Origin: an uncultured Pseudomonadales bacterium
Lineage (GTDB): Bacteria; Pseudomonadota; Alphaproteobacteria; UBA2136; UBA6156
Reading direction: 5' to 3'
Assembly (NCBI GenBank): GCA_964601735.1
Contig: CAZROO010000005.1
Location: 1-57,007, forward strand
DNA length: 57,007 bases
This document shows, piece after piece, positions 3,708 through 54,728 of the stretch. The position numbers and the translations under genes were made by a program. Under the pieces are notes generated by a model that was not told the DNA's origin, ran no database searches, and worked only from the letters and a program-made list of their open reading frames with translations. The stretch's first letter is position 1; each line of letters begins with the position of its first letter.

Positions 3708-3791
3708 CATGCCCTTGACCTTGTAAAAAGGAAAATCTAGGGTGCCGCCATCGTTTACCCGAACCATCTTGTCCCCGACCGGAGAACCATC

Positions 3792-4001
3792 ATGTTCGAT
3801 TCCCGCTCTGATGAAACCGCGTTTGAACAGACCGTTAAAAATATAGAAACCGACAATGAGCGGGTGAGAAGAAAGTTCGCCACCGCTGCCGCCCGCAACG
3901 GCCTGCTCGATGAACTCTTGAAAGAAAACCCTGCATTAAAAGACCGTCTTGAAAGGAAAATCCAAGCCAAACTGGCAAGCACGGAGAAAAAGGGCGCATA
4001 G
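3792..4001 (+). CDS. Small hypothetical helical protein (69 aa)
   Basis: GGAGA RBS before ATG; CTTGAC-N17-CTAGGG promoter-like element upstream. Confidence 0.6.
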   Translation: MFDSRSDETAFEQTVKNIETDNERVRRKFATAAARNGLLDELLKENPALKDRLERKIQAKLASTEKKGA

Positions 4002-20651: not shown

Positions 20652-21476
20652 TTAATTCACATCAATGACAAACGGGACAGTCACAACCTGCCCCTTATGC
20701 TTCACCTGCAGAAACAGCTTATGCATGCCACGCACTTGAGGCATCAGTTGAAAATTCAACACCGGCCCGCCGCGGTCATCCGGGCTTTCCGGTTCGGCCC
20801 CGCTCGGGTGCGCATGCATGATGGTCTCCAGGTTCCTGTCAAAACCCGCCAGGTGGGCATAAGACCCCATAATCGGCTCCAGGCTTGTCACCGGCAACCC
20901 ATCGTCGCTGTAGGTGTTCAAAATTGCCAGCGTGCCCTCACCCGCGTGCGGCGGCATCGCCAGGGTCAGGGTAAAACGCATACCGTCACCGCTGCCGGTC
21001 AGCACTTGCTCCTTGCCCAGCGCCGTCGGTTGCGGAACCACCCCACCCAGTTGCAACGGCACAAACTGGTCGTTGTCCTCCTTGGGTTTCACTTCCAGCC
21101 AAAGCTTGTAAGCTGCCCTTTGCGGCGTAAAACCCACCACCCATTCGCCGTCGCTCCGGCCCGGCACGGGGTGGAGGTGATGATAATCGGCCATGCCGCC
21201 ATCAATCGCAAACAGGTGCATCGGCTCGTCGTGGATAATCTCCACGTCCGCCGGACGTAATGGGCGGCCATATTTATCCTTTAATACCAGCGTCAGGCTC
21301 ACCGGCCTGCCGGGCACCAGCTCGCCGCCGTTGCTCACCGTGGCCCGCACCGTCGGACTGGCCGCCATACTCATCCCGGTCATACCCACCATGCCATGAC
21401 CGCCATCAGCCCATACCGCCAGCGGAGCCACCGGCAGCACAAGGCCCAGCGCTCCCAACATCCATAACCCACGCAT
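20652..21476 (-). CDS. Exported protein with duplicated His-motif domain (putative Cu/heavy-metal binding)
   Basis: Signal peptide, H/M-rich linker, two similar halves HDEPMHL..YHHLHP and MGSYAHL..IMHAHP. Confidence 0.7.
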   Translation of the reverse strand: MRGLWMLGALGLVLPVAPLAVWADGGHGMVGMTGMSMAASPTVRATVSNGGELVPGRPVSLTLVLKDKYGRPLRPADVEIIHDEPMHLFAIDGGMADYHHLHPVPGRSDGEWVVGFTPQRAAYKLWLEVKPKEDNDQFVPLQLGGVVPQPTALGKEQVLTGSGDGMRFTLTLAMPPHAGEGTLAILNTYSDDGLPVTSLEPIMGSYAHLAGFDRNLETIMHAHPSGAEPESPDDRGGPVLNFQLMPQVRGMHKLFLQVKHKGQVVTVPFVIDVN

Positions 21477-21819: not shown

Positions 21820-22671
21820 CTACAGTCCTTTCCGCCAGGCATCAAGGTCTTTGAGAGGCGTCAGCAATGCTTCCAGCTCATCCAGCGGCACCTGGGTTTC
21901 CTTGTCGCTAATCGCTTTGCTGGGGTCAGGATGGGTCTCGATGAACAACCCGGCCACCCCCACCGCCACGGCGGCCCGCAGCAGCGGCGGCAGGTCGGCA
22001 CGATTGCCGCTGCTGGCGCCACCGGCCCCGCTGGGTTTCATCACGCTGTGGGTGGCATCGAACACCACCGGGTAGCCGCTCCCGGCCATTACCGGAAAAC
22101 CACGAAAATCCACCACCAGGTTATGGTAGCCGAAGGTCACCCCGCGCTCGGTCAGAATCACGTTGTCGGTGCCCGCACTGGCAATCTTGGCGGCGGCGGG
22201 CAACATGTCCTCGGGGGCCATGAACTGCCCCTTTTTCAGGTTCACGGCTTTACTGGCCCCCTTCACCGCGGTGCCGCAGGCCAGCAACAGGTCGGTCTGG
22301 CGGGCCAGAAAGGCCGGGATCTGCACCACATCCACCACCTCGGCCACCGGCCCCACCTGGGCCAGGTCATGAACATCGGTAACCACAGGTAACCCCATGT
22401 TTTTACGAATTTCTTCCAGCAATTTCAGGCCTTCGTCCAGCCCCATGCCCCGGCCACCGCCCAAACTGGTCCGGTTTGCTTTATCAAAGCTACCTTTGTA
22501 CACCACGCCCCAGCCAAGCTTGCGACCAAGTTGCGACACCTTTTCAGCGGTCCGTAGCGTAATGTCCCGGCCCTCCAGGGCACAGGTTCCGGCCATGAGG
22601 CTTATAGGCAAATTATTGGAAAAAATGACTTTTTCAATCTTATCGCCACCAATAGTCACCGTCTTCTGCAT
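21820..22671 (-). CDS. kdsA: KDO-8-phosphate synthase
   Basis: KGSFDKANRTS, TDVH, QIPAFLARQTDLL, KKGQF, ERG, FDATHSV, FIETHPDP; start set at MQKTVTIGG. Confidence 0.97.
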   Translation of the reverse strand: MQKTVTIGGDKIEKVIFSNNLPISLMAGTCALEGRDITLRTAEKVSQLGRKLGWGVVYKGSFDKANRTSLGGGRGMGLDEGLKLLEEIRKNMGLPVVTDVHDLAQVGPVAEVVDVVQIPAFLARQTDLLLACGTAVKGASKAVNLKKGQFMAPEDMLPAAAKIASAGTDNVILTERGVTFGYHNLVVDFRGFPVMAGSGYPVVFDATHSVMKPSGAGGASSGNRADLPPLLRAAVAVGVAGLFIETHPDPSKAISDKETQVPLDELEALLTPLKDLDAWRKGL

Positions 22672-22695
22672 AGCCCCGAAATTAACCTCAAACCC

Positions 22696-22723
22696 CTTGA
22701 AATACCACCCCACCAACCCATTT
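22696..22723 (+). promoter_or_regulatory. Sigma32 (RpoH)-like promoter 1
   Basis: CTTGAA-N15-CCCATTT. Confidence 0.55.
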
Positions 22724-22759
22724 TTAAAGCAAGTCACCGCCATTCATAGGAGTTTAAAA

Positions 22760-23380
22760 ATGGCCATCGACCAATCTACAATCTCTTTAAGTGCCGACGC
22801 CCAAACCAAAAAGGCGGCATATGGCGAAATCTACTGCTCCACTCAAGGTACCTGCCCCAACGGCTGGCAAATCAAGCTCGCCGAAAACTATCCGCTGGCT
22901 CAATCCACCACCTCTCCCTCGGCAGATACTCTCACTGCCCAGGAAAAAGTGCCGGACATGCAGGCGGTGGCACCGGTTCCCGAAGCGGAACTGAAGCACA
23001 ACGGCGAACGCTCCGGTATTCACGGCACGGCAATAATCGCCGCAGTCACCGGGCAGCACATTGCCGACCCCTCACCGCAAATGAGGGCCGCGCACCGTAA
23101 GGCCCGGCTCAACACGCTTCGCAAAAAGCACGTCGCCGCCAAGCCTCACCACCACGAGCACCATCACCAGGTGGTCACCCGAGCCAACGGCCACCACAAA
23201 CGGAACGCCAAAGCAGCCCACCACTACCGGACTGCCAAGGCTCTACCTTCCCACCATAAAACACTCCAGGTCGCCATACCGGCACCCGAGCGCATGGTAG
23301 AAACGGCACCGCCGCCACGAGATCCCTTCCGTGAATTCCTCATGGCCTGTGCCCGCTTCGCCAGAGCGATCCGCACCTAA
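22760..23380 (+). CDS. Orphan protein with His/Lys/Arg-rich segment (206 aa)
   Basis: AGGAG RBS before the ATG at 22760, own terminator; the longer ORF start overlaps kdsA and was rejected. Confidence 0.7.
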   Translation: MAIDQSTISLSADAQTKKAAYGEIYCSTQGTCPNGWQIKLAENYPLAQSTTSPSADTLTAQEKVPDMQAVAPVPEAELKHNGERSGIHGTAIIAAVTGQHIADPSPQMRAAHRKARLNTLRKKHVAAKPHHHEHHHQVVTRANGHHKRNAKAAHHYRTAKALPSHHKTLQVAIPAPERMVETAPPPRDPFREFLMACARFARAIRT

Positions 23381-23396
23381 TCTTCGTCATAAACTT

Positions 23397-23417
23397 GGCC
23401 CTTCCTCTGGAAGGGCC
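23397..23417 (+). terminator. Intrinsic terminator
   Basis: GGCCCTTCC-tct-GGAAGGGCC followed by ATTTT. Confidence 0.8.
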
Positions 23418-23431
23418 ATTTTCTTTACCGC

Positions 23432-23459
23432 CTTGAAAATCAGCCATTTCGCCCCATAT
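23432..23459 (+). promoter_or_regulatory. Sigma32 (RpoH)-like promoter 2
   Basis: CTTGAA-N14-CCCCATAT, a full match to the classical sigma32 consensus. Confidence 0.7.
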
Positions 23460-23511
23460 TTAAGTTAAACCCGTGCCATCCGGCACATCCCTTTTTTGAT
23501 ATGAGGTCCAC

Positions 23512-23973
23512 ATGCCCCATGAATTCTCCCACCACGCTTTCGAGGACGCCGCCCGCGCTTTCCCATCGGAAAACCCAATGGAAGAAGCCCTGCCGGCAAT
23601 CGACGAGCAAGGTGACTTCACCGAGCCAAGCCCGGAGTTCAAACCTCACCTCCCCCACATCTACTGGGCCGGAGAGGTACGTCGGCACCAGCCGCCCAAA
23701 CCCGTCAGCAATTACCGGTCGCAAAACGAGCGGGCACTGGATGATTTGGCCTTCGGCTATCTTCCACCCATCCGCCGCAAGGCCGAAGTCTATTCCGACG
23801 ACTGGCTCAAAGCGGAAAACCAGCGGCAATACGAGCTGATGAGGGCGCCCGTTGCGCCTCCATCATCAGCTCCGCCGCCGGTTTCAGCACCTCCGAGGAA
23901 AAGAAGCTTCCTCGAATGGTTCCGCCAAAGGTGCTGGCTCGCGGTCATCTGCACCGCCCTCCGGTTCACTTGA
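23512..23973 (+). CDS. Orphan Pro-rich protein (153 aa)
   Basis: ORF between its own promoter and terminator; host-like codon usage. Confidence 0.65.
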   Translation: MPHEFSHHAFEDAARAFPSENPMEEALPAIDEQGDFTEPSPEFKPHLPHIYWAGEVRRHQPPKPVSNYRSQNERALDDLAFGYLPPIRRKAEVYSDDWLKAENQRQYELMRAPVAPPSSAPPPVSAPPRKRSFLEWFRQRCWLAVICTALRFT

Positions 23974-23983
23974 ACCTACCGAT

Positions 23984-24015
23984 AAAACCCCCGGCCAAAA
24001 GCCGGGGGGTTTTTT
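23984..24015 (+). terminator. Intrinsic terminator
   Basis: AAAACCCCCGGC-caaaa-GCCGGGGGGTTTTTT. Confidence 0.85.
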
Positions 24016-24024
24016 ATTTACAGC

Positions 24025-24053
24025 CTTGAAAAAGCCTCCATCCTGGCCCATCT
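24025..24053 (+). promoter_or_regulatory. Sigma32 (RpoH)-like promoter 3
   Basis: CTTGAA-N16-CCCATCT. Confidence 0.55.
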
Positions 24054-24101
24054 CTCAAAAGAACCCGCGCTCGCCGCACCTCACGTTTAAGGAACCTTAC
24101 C

Positions 24102-24302
24102 ATGACCCATTCCACAACTGAGCCTTTCGATTTTACCGCAGACATGGCGGCCATCGTCGAAAAGCAAATCAAACCGGTACGCAAACCGCCTGTCAGCATT
24201 TACGCTGAGCGAAACATCATTTCCTCGGCGGCAAATGATAAAGTCACCCGCCCACTCTGTTTCCAGACAGGTTTGGCCCTGCATCCCGAAATTTGGGAAT
24301 AA
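24102..24302 (+). CDS. Small orphan protein (66 aa)
   Basis: AAGGA RBS, own promoter and terminator. Confidence 0.6.
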   Translation: MTHSTTEPFDFTADMAAIVEKQIKPVRKPPVSIYAERNIISSAANDKVTRPLCFQTGLALHPEIWE

Positions 24303-24309
24303 CCAAACG

Positions 24310-24343
24310 AAAGCCCCCGGTTGCATAAGCAACCGGGGGCTTT
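24310..24343. terminator. Bidirectional terminator
   Basis: AAAGCCCCCGGTTGC-ataa-GCAACCGGGGGCTTT (15 bp stem). Confidence 0.9.
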
Positions 24344-24346
24344 TTC

Positions 24347-24589
24347 TTATTGCTGGACCGTAGCCGCAGGCGGCGGAATCCTGCACTCCTCAGCATTCCG
24401 GCCATGTTCCCACTCGCAGTCAGAAGGAAGAGTGGTAACAGCCCTTTTATAGTAAGGGTCGTCCACCCTCGCCGAGGGCGCCACGGCTTCCCGCAGACGG
24501 CTGCTGAAATCGGAAGCGCAACCCGCTATCGAAACCCCCAGCAAAACCAGAACACTAAAACGAACAATCCATCGCACGAAAATCTCCAT
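24347..24589 (-). CDS. Small lipoprotein (80 aa)
   Basis: Hydrophobic signal with IAGC lipobox; two C-terminal Cys. Confidence 0.7.
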   Translation of the reverse strand: MEIFVRWIVRFSVLVLLGVSIAGCASDFSSRLREAVAPSARVDDPYYKRAVTTLPSDCEWEHGRNAEECRIPPPAATVQQ

Positions 24590-24657
24590 GCCGTAAAAAG
24601 GGCCAAAACCTACTTTCTAAATAGGCCATCCCAGGCCCAAATCAAGGGCCATCCAAC

Positions 24658-25260
24658 CTATTTAGCGTGGAGTTCCTTCAGTTTCGCATCCCGCCCGCAG
24701 CCCTGGCGGTACGCTGCATACTGCAGCGGATTCTTCAGGTAATATTCCTGGTGGTACTCCTCGGCAGGCCAGAACCTGGCCGCGGGCAACACCTCGGTCA
24801 CAACCTTTACCGGCTTGCCCAGCTTGGCGCTTAAGGTTTTTGCCAGCACCAGCTTGCTGGCCTCGGCATCCTTGCGCTCCTGCGCGTTGGCCACAAAAAT
24901 CGCGCTGCGGTACTGCGTGCCCTTGTCGCAAAACTGCCCGGCCGCATCCATCGGGTCGATGTTGCTCCAGAAAATTTCCACCAGCCGCGGATAACTCACC
25001 ACGGCAGGATCGTAGGTCACCTGAATCGCCTCGAAATGCCCGGTGTTGCCTGCGCTCACCTGCTCATAGGTCGGATTGTCCACATGCCCGCCGGTAAACC
25101 CCACCGTGGTTTTCTTCACACCCTGCTGGTGGTCGAATTCACTCTGCATGCACCAAAAGCACCCACCCGCAAAAGTGGCGGTCTTCAAACTCGCAGCCAT
25201 CGCCTTCCCTCCCGTCAAAACCATCCCCACCACTAAAATAGCCTTCAGCCAAACCTTCAT
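24658..25260 (-). CDS. msrA: Periplasmic peptide methionine sulfoxide reductase MsrA
   Basis: Signal peptide; FAGGCFWC, GQFCDKGTQYRSAIF, AEEYHQEYY, GCGRD. Confidence 0.96.
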   Translation of the reverse strand: MKVWLKAILVVGMVLTGGKAMAASLKTATFAGGCFWCMQSEFDHQQGVKKTTVGFTGGHVDNPTYEQVSAGNTGHFEAIQVTYDPAVVSYPRLVEIFWSNIDPMDAAGQFCDKGTQYRSAIFVANAQERKDAEASKLVLAKTLSAKLGKPVKVVTEVLPAARFWPAEEYHQEYYLKNPLQYAAYRQGCGRDAKLKELHAK

Positions 25261-41437: not shown

Positions 41438-41698
41438 ATGGCCATCGATGAACCTTCTTTTTTCTACAATCTCCACTGCTGGGAGCCTTGCATTCTTCCC
41501 GGCAAAGCCCCACCCCCCGACCCCGTTATTGAGTCCTACGCCGACCAGCCCACAGCTATCCAAAACCTTCGCACTAAAAATGCAATTAAGGATGAATACG
41601 AGGATTATTACATCTCCACGCCAACAGGAAAGTTCCTCTGGATTAACAAAGAAGGCTCTCTCATCGAGAGCGAAAAGCCCTTCGCCAAACCAGCCTGA
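41438..41698 (+). CDS. Orphan AT-richer protein (86 aa) between ssb and uvrA
   Basis: AGGAG RBS, own terminator. Confidence 0.65.
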   Translation: MAIDEPSFFYNLHCWEPCILPGKAPPPDPVIESYADQPTAIQNLRTKNAIKDEYEDYYISTPTGKFLWINKEGSLIESEKPFAKPA

Positions 41699-44811: not shown

Positions 44812-44895
44812 CGAAATCCCCGTCACGGGGTTCGTATGCTCTTTACGATCAGACAAACTATGGAACGCCAGTATACACCTAACTCACTGTATACC

Positions 44896-44923
44896 TTGAC
44901 ATATTTTTCGCGCCCACCACAAT
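44896..44923 (+). promoter_or_regulatory. Sigma70-like promoter
   Basis: TTGACA-N16-CACAAT. Confidence 0.5.
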
Positions 44924-44978
44924 ACATATGAGCAACCTTGCTCAATCTCCATATTCCTTTTTGCTTGGAGGAATTCCA

Positions 44979-46146: not shown

Positions 46147-46764
46147 TTAAAGCTTGAAGCGCGGGCTCGCCTTCCCATCCAAACAAGCCTGCGTGCGTTC
46201 TTCCACCACGTCCCAGTTCACGTTGTTCACAAACGCCTCAATGTACTTGCCCCGCTCAGTCACGGCGTAGTCAATGAGGAACGCATGCTCCCACACGTCC
46301 ATGCTCAGCAGAATTTCATACCCAGGCATATGCCCATCGTTATGCAGTTCAATGAAGTGGTTGTTCACATCACCGGTGATGGGGTCCAGGTAAACAATCG
46401 CATGCCCCACGCCGCGCGTACCGCCGCAGGCCTTGAAGTCCGCCAGCCAGGCATCATAGCTCCCGTACTTCTCCGCCACTTTTTTCTTGAAGTCCGCAGC
46501 CTTGTTGTCCACGCCCGCCTTCAGGTTGGCAAAGTAGTAATCGTGAACCAGCATGCCGCACATCTCAAACGCCTGACGACGACGACGGTCGGCATAAAGC
46601 GGCGTACCGCCCTCACCTTTCTCGCGCATGTCGGCCAACTGCTTAATCAACGTGTTGGTCTGCGTCACGTAGCCTTCATAAAGCTTCCAGTGTTCGTCGA
46701 TCTGCTTGTCGGAAATCCCCACCAGCCCCTTGGGCTTGAATTCAATACGCGCTTTATACTCCAT
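46147..46764 (-). CDS. sod: Fe/Mn superoxide dismutase (divergent LYxGYV type)
   Basis: EHWKLYEGYV, LVHDYYF, MDVWEHAFLIDY metal ligands; AAGGAG RBS before MEYK. Confidence 0.92.
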   Translation of the reverse strand: MEYKARIEFKPKGLVGISDKQIDEHWKLYEGYVTQTNTLIKQLADMREKGEGGTPLYADRRRRQAFEMCGMLVHDYYFANLKAGVDNKAADFKKKVAEKYGSYDAWLADFKACGGTRGVGHAIVYLDPITGDVNNHFIELHNDGHMPGYEILLSMDVWEHAFLIDYAVTERGKYIEAFVNNVNWDVVEERTQACLDGKASPRFKL

Positions 46765-50831: not shown

Positions 50832-50990
50832 AGTCTTCAGTCCTTGTTCCAAGCCGCACCCTAATTAAGCATTCCATAATTGTCTACAGCCTCGCCAGCC
50901 ACAAAAGCACTTGAAAAGACCTCTCTCCCGCCCTAATAAAAGGGAGTCAACCCTTTGCGTTTCTTCTCGGCAAATCAAGGAACCCCCTCG

Positions 50991-51383
50991 ATGCCATTCA
51001 TCCAAAGCCTTATGGCCGATGTCGAAAACCTTACACTCATCGAAGCGCTGCGCTTCGTGAAGAGCCACCACGTCTCGCACTTGAATGCCAAGCAAACAGA
51101 GGTAAAACTCAACTCCACCTGGCCAGTCGAAAAAAAGCAGGAAGTTCTAAAACTGCTTGAAAAAAACACGGTCAACGTCAAGCTGCAGCATATCGACACC
51201 TCACCAGAGGGCCGACTAAACATGCAATTGCTTATTCCGGCTCCCCCGGATGAAGTTCAGCAAGCCATCAGCTACATCTGCAAGCATACCAAAACCGCCC
51301 GTGTTTTCGAGCGTGGTACGGCCCATATCCGCACACGCCCAAAAGGCGAACCTCGACAAAAATATGCTACAGCGAACGCTTAG
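50991..51383 (+). CDS. Hypothetical protein (~130 aa; possible ACT/ferredoxin-like fold)
   Basis: AAGGA RBS, CTTGAA promoter-like element at 50910, own terminator. Confidence 0.6.
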   Translation: MPFIQSLMADVENLTLIEALRFVKSHHVSHLNAKQTEVKLNSTWPVEKKQEVLKLLEKNTVNVKLQHIDTSPEGRLNMQLLIPAPPDEVQQAISYICKHTKTARVFERGTAHIRTRPKGEPRQKYATANA

Positions 51384-51424: not shown

Positions 51425-51772
51425 TTATGCCGCTATCAGGCGATTCAACGCCGCTTTCACCGCGTCGATGTCATGCACCCGGCTTACATTTGTATCCGTG
51501 TGCAAGCCGTGTTTACGGAGAGAGCCTTCATCGCCGGTCCACAGTAGAACCGGCAAGTTCGACTGCCAACCCCGCCGTATCTCGCGCCACAGGTCGGCAA
51601 CGGTTCCGTCCTGGTAAGTCTCGCTCGCCACGACAAAATCGTAGCGCTCGGCCCGAACCGCCTGCATGGTAGTGTGCACCTTGCCGCAGTCCTTTACCGC
51701 ATGCTCATTGCGCAGGGCCTTCTTAAGCTCCCAGCGCACCTTCCAGTCACCCAGTGCAATCAGAATCCGCAT
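51425..51772 (-). CDS. Stand-alone receiver-like (pseudo-receiver) domain
   Basis: MRILIALGD...RYDFVVAS...DLWREIR...LPVLLWT follows the REC topology; the phospho-Asp and conserved Lys are absent. Confidence 0.7.
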   Translation of the reverse strand: MRILIALGDWKVRWELKKALRNEHAVKDCGKVHTTMQAVRAERYDFVVASETYQDGTVADLWREIRRGWQSNLPVLLWTGDEGSLRKHGLHTDTNVSRVHDIDAVKAALNRLIAA

Positions 51773-51949: not shown

Positions 51950-52034
51950 TGGTTAGGCTACTCGGCTTTCTCCCAGCGACCTTACCTTGACCCCAAGCAG
52001 AATACACGTCCATCTCCGCTGCATGAAAGAGCGC

Positions 52035-53921: not shown

Positions 53922-54509
53922 CTAAGATGCGTACTGCCACAGGTATTTGATGAGAATGAAAAACAGCAGCAAACCCAGCGAAATCGACATGGTCAACGCC
54001 GCCAAGTTACGTTCAATCCACTCCTTAAAGCGTGGCCCACCCCGCCATAAAAGCCAAGAAATAAGCCAAAAACGGGCACCCCGCGCAATCAGCGTTGCCA
54101 TTAAAAAGGCGGGCAGCTGGGCCCCCAACACACCGCTACCGATGGCCACCGCCTTGAACGGCAGCGGCGAGAACCCGGCAGTGGCGACAACCGCCACATC
54201 GTACCCCTGATACCAGGTTTTAAGGGCATAAAAAAAGCTCTCAAATCCATAACTTGCAGCAATCGGCTCAATGAAAATCCGGGCCACCAGATTACCCAGG
54301 ATATAGCCGCCAAGCGCACCCGCCACGCTGCCCAGCGTGGCCACCAGGGCGTAGCGGAAAGCCCTGTCCGGGTTGATGAGAGACATCGGCACCAGCAGCG
54401 ATTCAGCGGCTGCGGGGGCAAAGGCGGACTCGGCCATCGACATGAAAAACAAGGCATTTTCTGCCTGCGGTTGCTGGGCGTAGCCCGCCATGCGGTCTTT
54501 AAGAGTCAT
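53922..54509 (-). CDS. YqaA/DedA-family membrane protein
   Basis: SMAESAFAP...LLVPM, TLGSVAG, GFSPLPFK, ARGARF; start set at MTLKDR. Confidence 0.9.
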   Translation of the reverse strand: MTLKDRMAGYAQQPQAENALFFMSMAESAFAPAAAESLLVPMSLINPDRAFRYALVATLGSVAGALGGYILGNLVARIFIEPIAASYGFESFFYALKTWYQGYDVAVVATAGFSPLPFKAVAIGSGVLGAQLPAFLMATLIARGARFWLISWLLWRGGPRFKEWIERNLAALTMSISLGLLLFFILIKYLWQYAS

Positions 54510-54728
54510 ACGATGGGCAGTATACCATTGGAATTTACAAGGCCCACCACGGGCCAGGACAAAGCGTGCGGAAGTGATGCAGCACTGTCGCAGTATTGTC
54601 GGTCCGGCGTGCACGGCTGTCGGTTTTACTCCCGTAAATGTGCGCAACCGGCGCGAAAGTGTCGCAGCCTTGTCATTTTATGAAAAAAATGCGCCGGAGA
54701 GAGCCCGGCGCGGTCGCGATGGTTGGGT

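Follow-up and report, generated by a model that had tools for sequence, protein, structure and literature searches.

The stretch of DNA analysed here (the window, 57,007 nucleotides (nt) of contig CAZROO010000005.1) comes from an uncultured alphaproteobacterium and resembles an alphaproteobacterial-type chromosome in its gene content. Four small orphan genes, open reading frames ORF1 to ORF4, sit in a 1.95-kb stretch between kdsA and msrA and each of them is preceded by a two-box promoter motif (P1 to P4). A preliminary description of this DNA had placed motifs at 22696, 23432, 24025 and 24646-24619 in front of four orphan genes that form separate units. All four motifs were found at these positions, and each gene has its own promoter and a strong hairpin terminator, where ORF3 and ORF4 share a bidirectional one. 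A fifth motif (P5) lies in front of a further orphan gene, orf115, about 27 kb away. The features are collected in Table 1.

Table 1. Promoter motifs, genes and terminators of the orphan-gene units, with msrA for context (aa, amino acids; pI, isoelectric point)
Feature	Position	Strand	Description
P1	22696-22723	+	CTTGAA-N15-CCCATTT, preceded by CCC; predicted start about 22729-22731
ORF1	22760-23380	+	206 aa, pI 9.9, His-/Ala-rich (HHHEHHH); AGGAG Shine-Dalgarno
ORF1 terminator	23396-23425	+	Intrinsic; TGGCCCTTCC-TCT-GGAAGGGCCA then TTTTCTTT; hairpin 23396-23418
P2	23432-23459	+	CTTGAA-N14-CCCCATAT; -10 heptamer CCCATAT; predicted start about 23465-23467
ORF2 leader	23460-23511	+	Hairpin GTGCC-ATCC-GGCAC, U6 tract, GAGG Shine-Dalgarno
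ORF2	23512-23973	+	153 aa, Pro-rich, C-terminal hydrophobic helix
ORF2 terminator	23988-24017	+	Intrinsic; CCCCCGGC-CAAAA-GCCGGGGG then GTTTTTTATTT; hairpin 23988-24008
P3	24025-24053	+	CTTGAA-N16-CCCATCT; predicted start about 24059-24061
ORF3	24102-24302	+	66 aa, hydrophilic
Shared terminator	24309-24344	both	Bidirectional, between convergent ORF3 and ORF4; 15-16 bp stem with 10 G-C pairs
ORF4	24347-24589	-	Small lipoprotein, lipobox SIAG/C, two further Cys
P4	24619-24646	-	CTTGAT-N15-CCTATTT; begins 12 nt past the msrA stop codon; predicted start about 24611-24613
msrA	24658-25260	-	Exported peptide methionine sulfoxide reductase, signal peptide
orf115	51425-51772	-	115-aa orphan; AGGGAG Shine-Dalgarno, own terminator
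P5	51818-51845	-	TTTGAA-N15-CCTATAT; 46 nt before the ATG of orf115

The promoter class can be generalised as (C)TTGA(A/T)-N15-16-(C/T)C(C/T)ATNT. Spacers to the heptamer CCYATNT are 15, 15, 16, 15 and 15 nt long in P1 to P5 and 15 nt in every copy found in the related clades B and C described below. Five copies of the generalised pattern TTGAW-N14-17-YCYATNT were observed in the window where 0.31 would be expected from shuffled sequence, and just three in 733 kb of unrelated genomic loci with a GC content of 0.52-0.68. The strict pattern CTTGAA-N13-17-CCCAT occurs four times against 0.21 expected; three of these copies belong to the four-gene stretch and the fourth, at 46153, is antisense within sod. 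The motif is enriched about 20-fold over shuffled sequence or unrelated genomic DNA of similar GC content. All five full matches to the generalised pattern are intergenic, correctly oriented and located 30-53 nt 5' of start codons, and the distances from the end of the -10 box to the start codon as first called are 37, 53, 49 and 30 nt for P1 to P4. About 45 conserved genes of the window, housekeeping genes included, and its tRNA were checked and the motif was found before none of them. When one mismatch was allowed, two extra sites appeared in the window, neither in front of a gene. A one-mismatch copy (CTTGAC-N17-TCCATCT, 51986-52015, + strand) lies in the 457-nt gap between orf115 and an M23 peptidase gene; it is aimed at no annotated gene and is either the promoter of a small or antisense RNA or a chance match.

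P1 is only 22 nt from the ATG of kdsA (22674, - strand) and it takes up most of the 85 nt between the kdsA and ORF1 start codons (22675-22760). No recognisable kdsA promoter was found, so that it must overlap P1 or the 5' end of ORF1, which implies overlapping divergent transcription of ORF1 and of kdsA, an essential gene of lipopolysaccharide synthesis. A candidate for it inside ORF1 (CTTGAG-N17-CCATAT, minus strand, about 22847-22819) was rejected on two grounds: clade B lacks its TTG, and in other clade A strains the region is unrelated.

Related metagenomic contigs were assigned to three diverged clades, A (L081, L163-L167, L170 and L171), B (L082, L168 and L172) and C (L173), and the arrangement of genes and promoters is stable in all three. 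One contig, L174, reaches about 470 nt past the window. When promoters were compared between clades, in six pairs, 11-13 of the 13 box positions were identical in each pair, or 74 of 78 in total, while synonymous sites differ by about 44% between the window and clade B (dS, the synonymous divergence, is 0.55-0.82 in the flanking housekeeping genes). P1 (CTTGAA/CCCATTT in clade A) and P2 (CTTGAA/CCCATAT) have identical boxes in clade B and keep 14 and 13 of their 15 spacer positions, respectively; clade C does not cover them. Over the whole motif P1 is identical to the copy in clade B contig L082 at 27 of 28 positions, and P2 to those in L082 and L168 at 26 of 28. This conservation is less informative for P1, since the site is so close to the divergent kdsA start and since the 5' end of ORF1 has been exchanged between clades. 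P3 (CTTGAA/CCCATCT) reads CTTGAA-N15-CCCATAT in clade B and CTTGAA-N15-CCCATCT in clade C; its spacer has been rewritten and changed in length, with 8 of 16 positions identical. P4 (CTTGAT/CCTATTT) reads CTTGAT-N15-TCTATTT in clade B and GTTGAT-N15-CCCATTT in clade C and keeps 8-9 of 15 spacer positions. Overall, the spacers of P3 and P4 are 50-60% identical. At the sigma-70 -12 position, every clade keeps a C in P1 to P3, and a C also arises there in P4 of clade C.

Because the boxes are conserved across three diverged clades against this level of synonymous divergence and between scrambled P3 and P4 spacers, P1 to P4 are, on comparative evidence, functional promoters of one class. We give hardly any credence to the opposite view, that the motifs match by chance and the real promoters lie elsewhere. 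It is true that the patterns are short and degenerate and that the strict match at 46153 is clearly non-functional. Against this stand the enrichment, the perfect positional fit and the conservation specific to the boxes, and it is this conservation pattern that effectively refutes a chance origin.

The preliminary description had interpreted the four genes as a heat or protein-damage response island with msrA next to it. The term island is too strong, as P5 in front of orf115 shows that the promoter class is dispersed. The 115 residues of orf115 were called identically by gene callers on six independent contigs, and the protein belongs to no known family. The adjacency of msrA was also found not to be evidence of a stress island. 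This gene carries a signal peptide, begins 30 nt after recO with no motif upstream and appears to close the lepB-rnc-era-recO operon, as the last gene of an acpS-lepB-rnc-era-recO-msrA run; it lies outside the promoter class. Within the window, the promoter class serves small orphan genes only.

The orphan character of the four genes was borne out by the searches. No credible family was found for them in Pfam, NCBIfam, PHROG or PADLOC, where the sole PHROG match (ORF4 to phrog_18333, E 0.027) is not credible, and PDB sequence searches with the orphan proteins likewise returned nothing credible. Each of the four genes has 0-5 relatives in billions of proteins, all within the lineage. Homologues of ORF1 form five protein clusters, all metagenomic, and the protein is encoded by no GTDB representative genome and by none of 2.9 million viral contigs. 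ORF2 has two protein clusters and was also absent from these viral contigs, and no additional relatives of ORF1 or ORF2 were found in a metagenome contig collection. In a word-index protein search, ORF3 matched nothing but itself; for ORF4, two relatives were found among 1.84 billion representatives. No paralogy was found among the orphan proteins. Compared with clade B, the ratio of nonsynonymous to synonymous divergence (dN/dS) of the four ORFs is 0.24-0.52, which indicates weak purifying selection, whereas the flanking lepB, rnc, era, recO and msrA have values of 0.05-0.10 at dS 0.55-0.82. The ORFs are therefore coding, and their proteins evolve five to eight times faster than those of their neighbours.

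ORF1 (dN/dS 0.24-0.38) has no predicted signal peptide or transmembrane segment. Its AlphaFold2 model has a mean predicted local distance difference test score (pLDDT) of 53 and a predicted template modelling score (pTM) of 0.18, and that of ORF2 has a pLDDT of 58 and a pTM of 0.18; these poor models are consistent with both proteins being largely disordered. All four island proteins are hydrophilic and are predicted to be disordered for the most part. The 5' third of ORF1 (22740-23020; the 5' 270 nt of the gene) is a mosaic between strains. The window differs from the clade A contigs L081, L163 and L164 at more than 110 positions within 22740-23020 and by less than 1% elsewhere. This segment resembles clade B instead: amino acids 1-100 are 84% identical to clade B with dS 0.38, and amino acids 101-206 are 48% identical with dS 1.1. 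The mosaic allele suggests that strain groups have recombined within ORF1. At the place of the ORF1 terminator, clade B has a different hairpin (CCCCGGG..CCCGGGG followed by a T-run), and this replacement of one hairpin by another at the same place supports the function as a terminator.

ORF2 (dN/dS 0.37) contains a conserved core, PHIYWAGEVRRHQxPKPVSxYRSQNERALDD, and in clade B it is 200 aa long and its hydrophobic tail is extended. The stem of its terminator is conserved at 21 of 21 positions in L168. The ORF2 leader is 87-88% conserved, which is above its own coding sequence. We noticed that the leaders of ORF2 and ORF3 share a small hairpin, ACCCGYGC-N-GCAC (23469-23486 and 24063-24079), which begins exactly 10 nt past the -10 box in both, with a U-tract and then the Shine-Dalgarno sequence behind it. 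Only these two copies occur in the window where 0.53 would be expected, for a pattern that was picked post hoc. The shared element may be a common cis-regulatory element or the trace of a duplicated promoter-leader module. The z-scores of the leader hairpins are weak (-1.6 to -2.3).

ORF3 has a 58%-identical copy in contig L168 of clade B with a dN/dS of 0.51. In clade C (L173, 372-566, - strand), an unrelated 64-aa ORF was observed under the conserved P3 and before the conserved bidirectional terminator. This ORF has no detectable similarity to ORF3 in any frame, while the flanking ORF2 and ORF4 of clade C are still 46-49% identical, so that the gene under P3 would have been either replaced or diverged beyond recognition. 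Conservation of the bidirectional terminator in clade B is 86%, and clade C has the same architecture. For ORF4 (dN/dS 0.52), the true start is probably the GTG at 24577, giving 76 aa, and not the ATG at 24589, because of its relatives and of a GGAG Shine-Dalgarno sequence that precedes the GTG.

The design of these units and the exchange of coding sequence raise the question whether they are moron-like cassettes that a prophage or mobile element has inserted downstream of recO. The arrangement of promoter, gene and terminator does resemble that of phage morons, ORF1 is a mosaic between strains, and clade C has a different ORF under P3. Furthermore, in 'Proteobacteria bacterium UBA6156' (L083/L187, 8.7-14.5 kb) a P22-like prophage with large terminase, portal and capsid genes lies immediately 3' of recO, in the position occupied by msrA and the orphan genes in the window; the site after recO seems to be variable. 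However, no credible PHROG match or relative among the viral contigs was found, there are no integrase, repeat or tRNA boundaries, the GC content is like that of the surroundings and the neighbours are core genes. The arrangement is also stable in three clades and the same promoter class is used at an unrelated locus. We therefore consider a moron origin very unlikely.

The promoter class is best explained by recognition through an RpoH (sigma-32) type sigma factor, a reading to which we assign a probability of roughly 0.5. The -35 element of sigma-32 promoters, CTTGAA(A), is seen as CTTGAA(A) in P1 to P3, as CTTGAT in P4 and as TTTGAA in P5, and all five sites have a -10 element of either the enterobacterial (CCCCATNT) or the alphaproteobacterial (CCTATNT) form with 15-16 nt between CTTGAA and CCYATNT. 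In E. coli the sigma-32 -35 box is CTTGAA, and a dnaKp1-type scaffold, CCCCCTTGAA-N14-CCCCATTT, was used for the structure of the sigma-32 open complex (PMC10216364). P1 (CCCCTTGAA-N15-CCCATTT) equals this scaffold at every consensus position but one C. The consensus of RpoH1 in S. meliloti is CTTGAA-N15-16-CCTATAT (PMC4843759). The statement of the preliminary description that the motif matches established RpoH consensus sequences is upheld by this close fit to both E. coli sigma-32 and S. meliloti RpoH1. Orphan targets are not surprising in themselves, because genes of unknown function form a large part of defined RpoH regulons; those of R. sphaeroides include dozens of them (PMC3441632).

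Several observations weigh against an RpoH assignment. In S. meliloti, many of 614 RpoH sites predicted from the motif alone are likely to be false positives since the RpoD motif is similar (PMC3616915), and in R. etli 26 overlaps between RpoH and SigA promoters are documented (PMC4167512). The warning in the preliminary description that alphaproteobacterial RpoD promoters look alike is therefore still valid. P1 and P2 hold acceptable sigma-70 -10 hexamers (CATTTT and CATATT), and P2 scores 9/12 in a sigma-70 scan as TTGAAA-16-CATATT, where the scan pattern is that of E. coli. The -10 element of P4 varies by clade (CCTATTT, TCTATTT and CCCATTT) and is equally near the RpoD consensus CTATAT. 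All five targets are orphans with no chaperone among them, unlike a sample of a classical heat-shock regulon. None of rpoH, groES/groESL, dnaK and clpB lies within the window, and none of the RNA sequencing runs that were searched for the region carries it. Finally, the contrasting promoters are few in number and unverified.

In one alternative, the motifs are near-consensus RpoD/SigA housekeeping promoters, with genes that are constitutively and strongly expressed and have no link to stress. The R. etli RpoD consensus, cTTGAc-N16-cnATAA, is only one or two bases off the RpoH motifs (PMC4167512), and P4 can be read as CTTGAT-N16-CTATTT with an upstream C that is not kept in clade B. Measured against the RpoD pattern of a CTTGAC -35 and a CTATAT -10 box, P4 fits, and P1 to P3 deviate by an AA in the -35 box and a C at -12. 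The kept C at -12, which appears even in P4 of clade C, is odd for sigma-70, and the -35 box is always TTGAA or TTGAT and never TTGAC. Moreover, an RpoD class would be expected in front of conserved or housekeeping genes or the tRNA, where the motif is absent throughout the 57 kb. The candidate promoters of such genes in the window instead show TTGAC or TTGG -35 boxes and CTA-type -10 boxes. We found CTTGACC-N16-CTAGGGT at 3714, CTTGGG-N17-CTAGGGT before ssb, CTTGACA-N17-ACAATA before hyp191 and CTTGGC..GTAAAC before tRNA-Pro, and all four differ from the motif class. For these reasons, the RpoD reading is regarded as possible but doubtful.

Among these contrasting sites, those at 3714-3743 (+) and 41406-41377 (-) are near-identical copies of CTTGRS-N17-CTAGGGT which precede an unannotated 68-aa ORF upstream of tRNA-Pro, and ssb, respectively; they may represent the housekeeping promoter type of this lineage. 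The housekeeping pattern CTTG-N18-20-CTWNNNT was not enriched in the window. A hypothetical gene of 191 aa has its ATG at 44928, and CCTTGACA-N17-ACAATA (44894-44927) ends 3 nt in front of it; this suggests that the mRNA is leaderless or that the start was mis-called.

Another RpoH-like sigma factor, such as a second RpoH paralogue of the RpoH2/RpoHII type acting in the oxidative, stationary-phase or general stress response and not in that to heat, or RpoH and RpoD together, would explain the same boxes. In many alphaproteobacteria there are two RpoH paralogues whose motifs overlap but whose regulons are distinct (PMC3441632, PMC4843759), the overlap of RpoH and SigA promoters noted above (PMC4167512) would fit dual recognition, and the targets are unknown and predicted periplasmic or membrane-associated proteins and not chaperones. 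S. meliloti RpoH2, however, favours a CTTGCC -35 box (PMC4843759), while all sites here have TTGAA or TTGAT. This explanation is considered unlikely. Control at the RNA level was also looked for. An Rfam scan of 22600-24700 gave no match above noise and only noise driven by the terminators, and an RNA thermometer or heat-shock operator (ROSE, fourU, CIRCE/HrcA) was rejected, as there was no Rfam match and no CIRCE-like repeat TTAGCACTC-N9-GAGTGCTAA was visible.

The four genes form single-gene units, three in tandem on the plus strand and one convergent on the minus strand, each composed of a class promoter, a leader of 30-46 nt that includes a Shine-Dalgarno sequence, a lineage-restricted small gene and a strong intrinsic terminator. 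If the RpoH reading is correct, the RpoH form of RNA polymerase would bind the CTTGAA -35 and CCCATNT -10 boxes and start transcription about 6-8 nt downstream, at roughly 22730, 23466 and 24060 and, on the minus strand, 24612 and (for P5) 51810. The genes would be switched on together when heat, unfolded protein or oxidative stress raises the level of RpoH, and P5 with orf115, built to the same design, would make this a dispersed regulon. ORF2 may be anchored in the membrane by its C-terminal helix and ORF4 is a predicted periplasmic lipoprotein. As a guess, the orphan proteins could be stress-protective accessory proteins.

The genes surrounding the units are core genes. One flank carries degP, an hda-like gene, ndk, pepA, lptF, lptG, lptD and then ftsB and kdsA, and the other carries acpS, lepB, rnc, era, recO and msrA. 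Farther along the window are spoT, smpB, mfd, recG, ssb, uvrA, sod, a long-form dcd, secF, secD and yajC. The nearest named genome is 'Alphaproteobacteria bacterium SMAG_U6923', with a Dcd that is 87% identical, and UBA6156 is far more distant (Era 54% identical). A RecO profile search for the syntenic region in the nearest named genome returned only UBA6156. Near-identical DNA is present in wastewater, soil, rhizosphere and sludge metagenomes, where the DNA runs from wastewater, soil and rhizosphere gave only short, near-identical contigs. The GC skew is about -0.2 over 1-54 kb and becomes positive past about 54.3 kb (window positions of about 54200-54600), and nearly all genes before about 54.3 kb are on the minus strand. 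The switch in skew and the gene orientation fit a replication origin near 54-55.6 kb; a cluster of DnaA boxes was not found there.

Additional unannotated or uncharacterised genes were noticed in the window. A 274-aa secreted protein (20652-21476, - strand) with a Met-/His-rich N-terminal stretch, GGHGMVGMTGMSM, is encoded in the kdsA-ftsB run; it has no Pfam or NCBIfam family and may be a periplasmic protein that binds a metal, perhaps copper. More small unannotated ORFs are found in long intergenic regions (41438-41698, 3794-4000 and 50955-51383, all on the plus strand), with no Pfam match where tested. Of these, the 86-aa ORF between ssb and uvrA starts with MAID like ORF1 and is otherwise dissimilar.

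The more interesting angle is the conservation of promoter and terminator slots together with turnover of their coding content. ORF1 has recombined between strains, and in clade C the P3 promoter and its terminator are kept around an ORF that is no longer recognisable. In this lineage, an RpoH-like class might be largely dedicated to young, fast-evolving orphans, housed in conserved slots of promoter and terminator in which coding sequences are swapped or invented anew. We put this forward as a speculative and rather improbable idea. If it were true, the slots would be a regulatory scaffold that recruits new genes into a stress regulon. Should RpoH dependence itself be true, the five conserved promoters and five unknown proteins would be entry points to the stress response of a widespread but uncultured alphaproteobacterium of soil, rhizosphere and wastewater, and a clean example of regulatory elements that are far more conserved than the genes they drive. 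The analysis also shows that, where metagenomes are the only source for an organism, a regulon class can be defined by a two-box motif together with a comparison among related strains. The knowledge of sigma-32 promoters themselves is unchanged by it.

Compared with known systems, the motifs share with the E. coli sigma-32 promoters (dnaK P1, groE) a CTTGAA -35 box preceded by C's, a -10 element of the CCCCATNT type and the spacing, and they differ in that the targets are orphan small proteins and not chaperones or proteases and that the host is an alphaproteobacterium. S. meliloti RpoH1 promoters have the identical -35 box and the identical spacing of 15-16 nt, and their CCTATNT form of the -10 box is carried by P4 and P5. 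The regulons of S. meliloti RpoH1 and of R. sphaeroides RpoHI/RpoHII likewise include many genes of unknown function (PMC4843759, PMC3441632), but P1 to P3 use the enterobacterial-type CCCAT instead of CCTAT and the units here are packed as single genes insulated by terminators. Alphaproteobacterial RpoD/SigA promoters (cTTGAc-N16-17-CTATAT or cnATAA) have in common with the motifs the CTTG of the -35 box, an AT-containing -10 box and similar spacing, and P4 fits almost equally well; the motifs differ from them in a -35 box ending in AA or AT and not AC, in conserved C's before the -10 box and in a C for T at -12 in P1 to P3. Finally, phage morons are likewise insulated units of promoter, gene and terminator whose gene content turns over between strains, whereas the units described here have no phage context and no credible viral homologue, and their promoters form one conserved chromosomal class.

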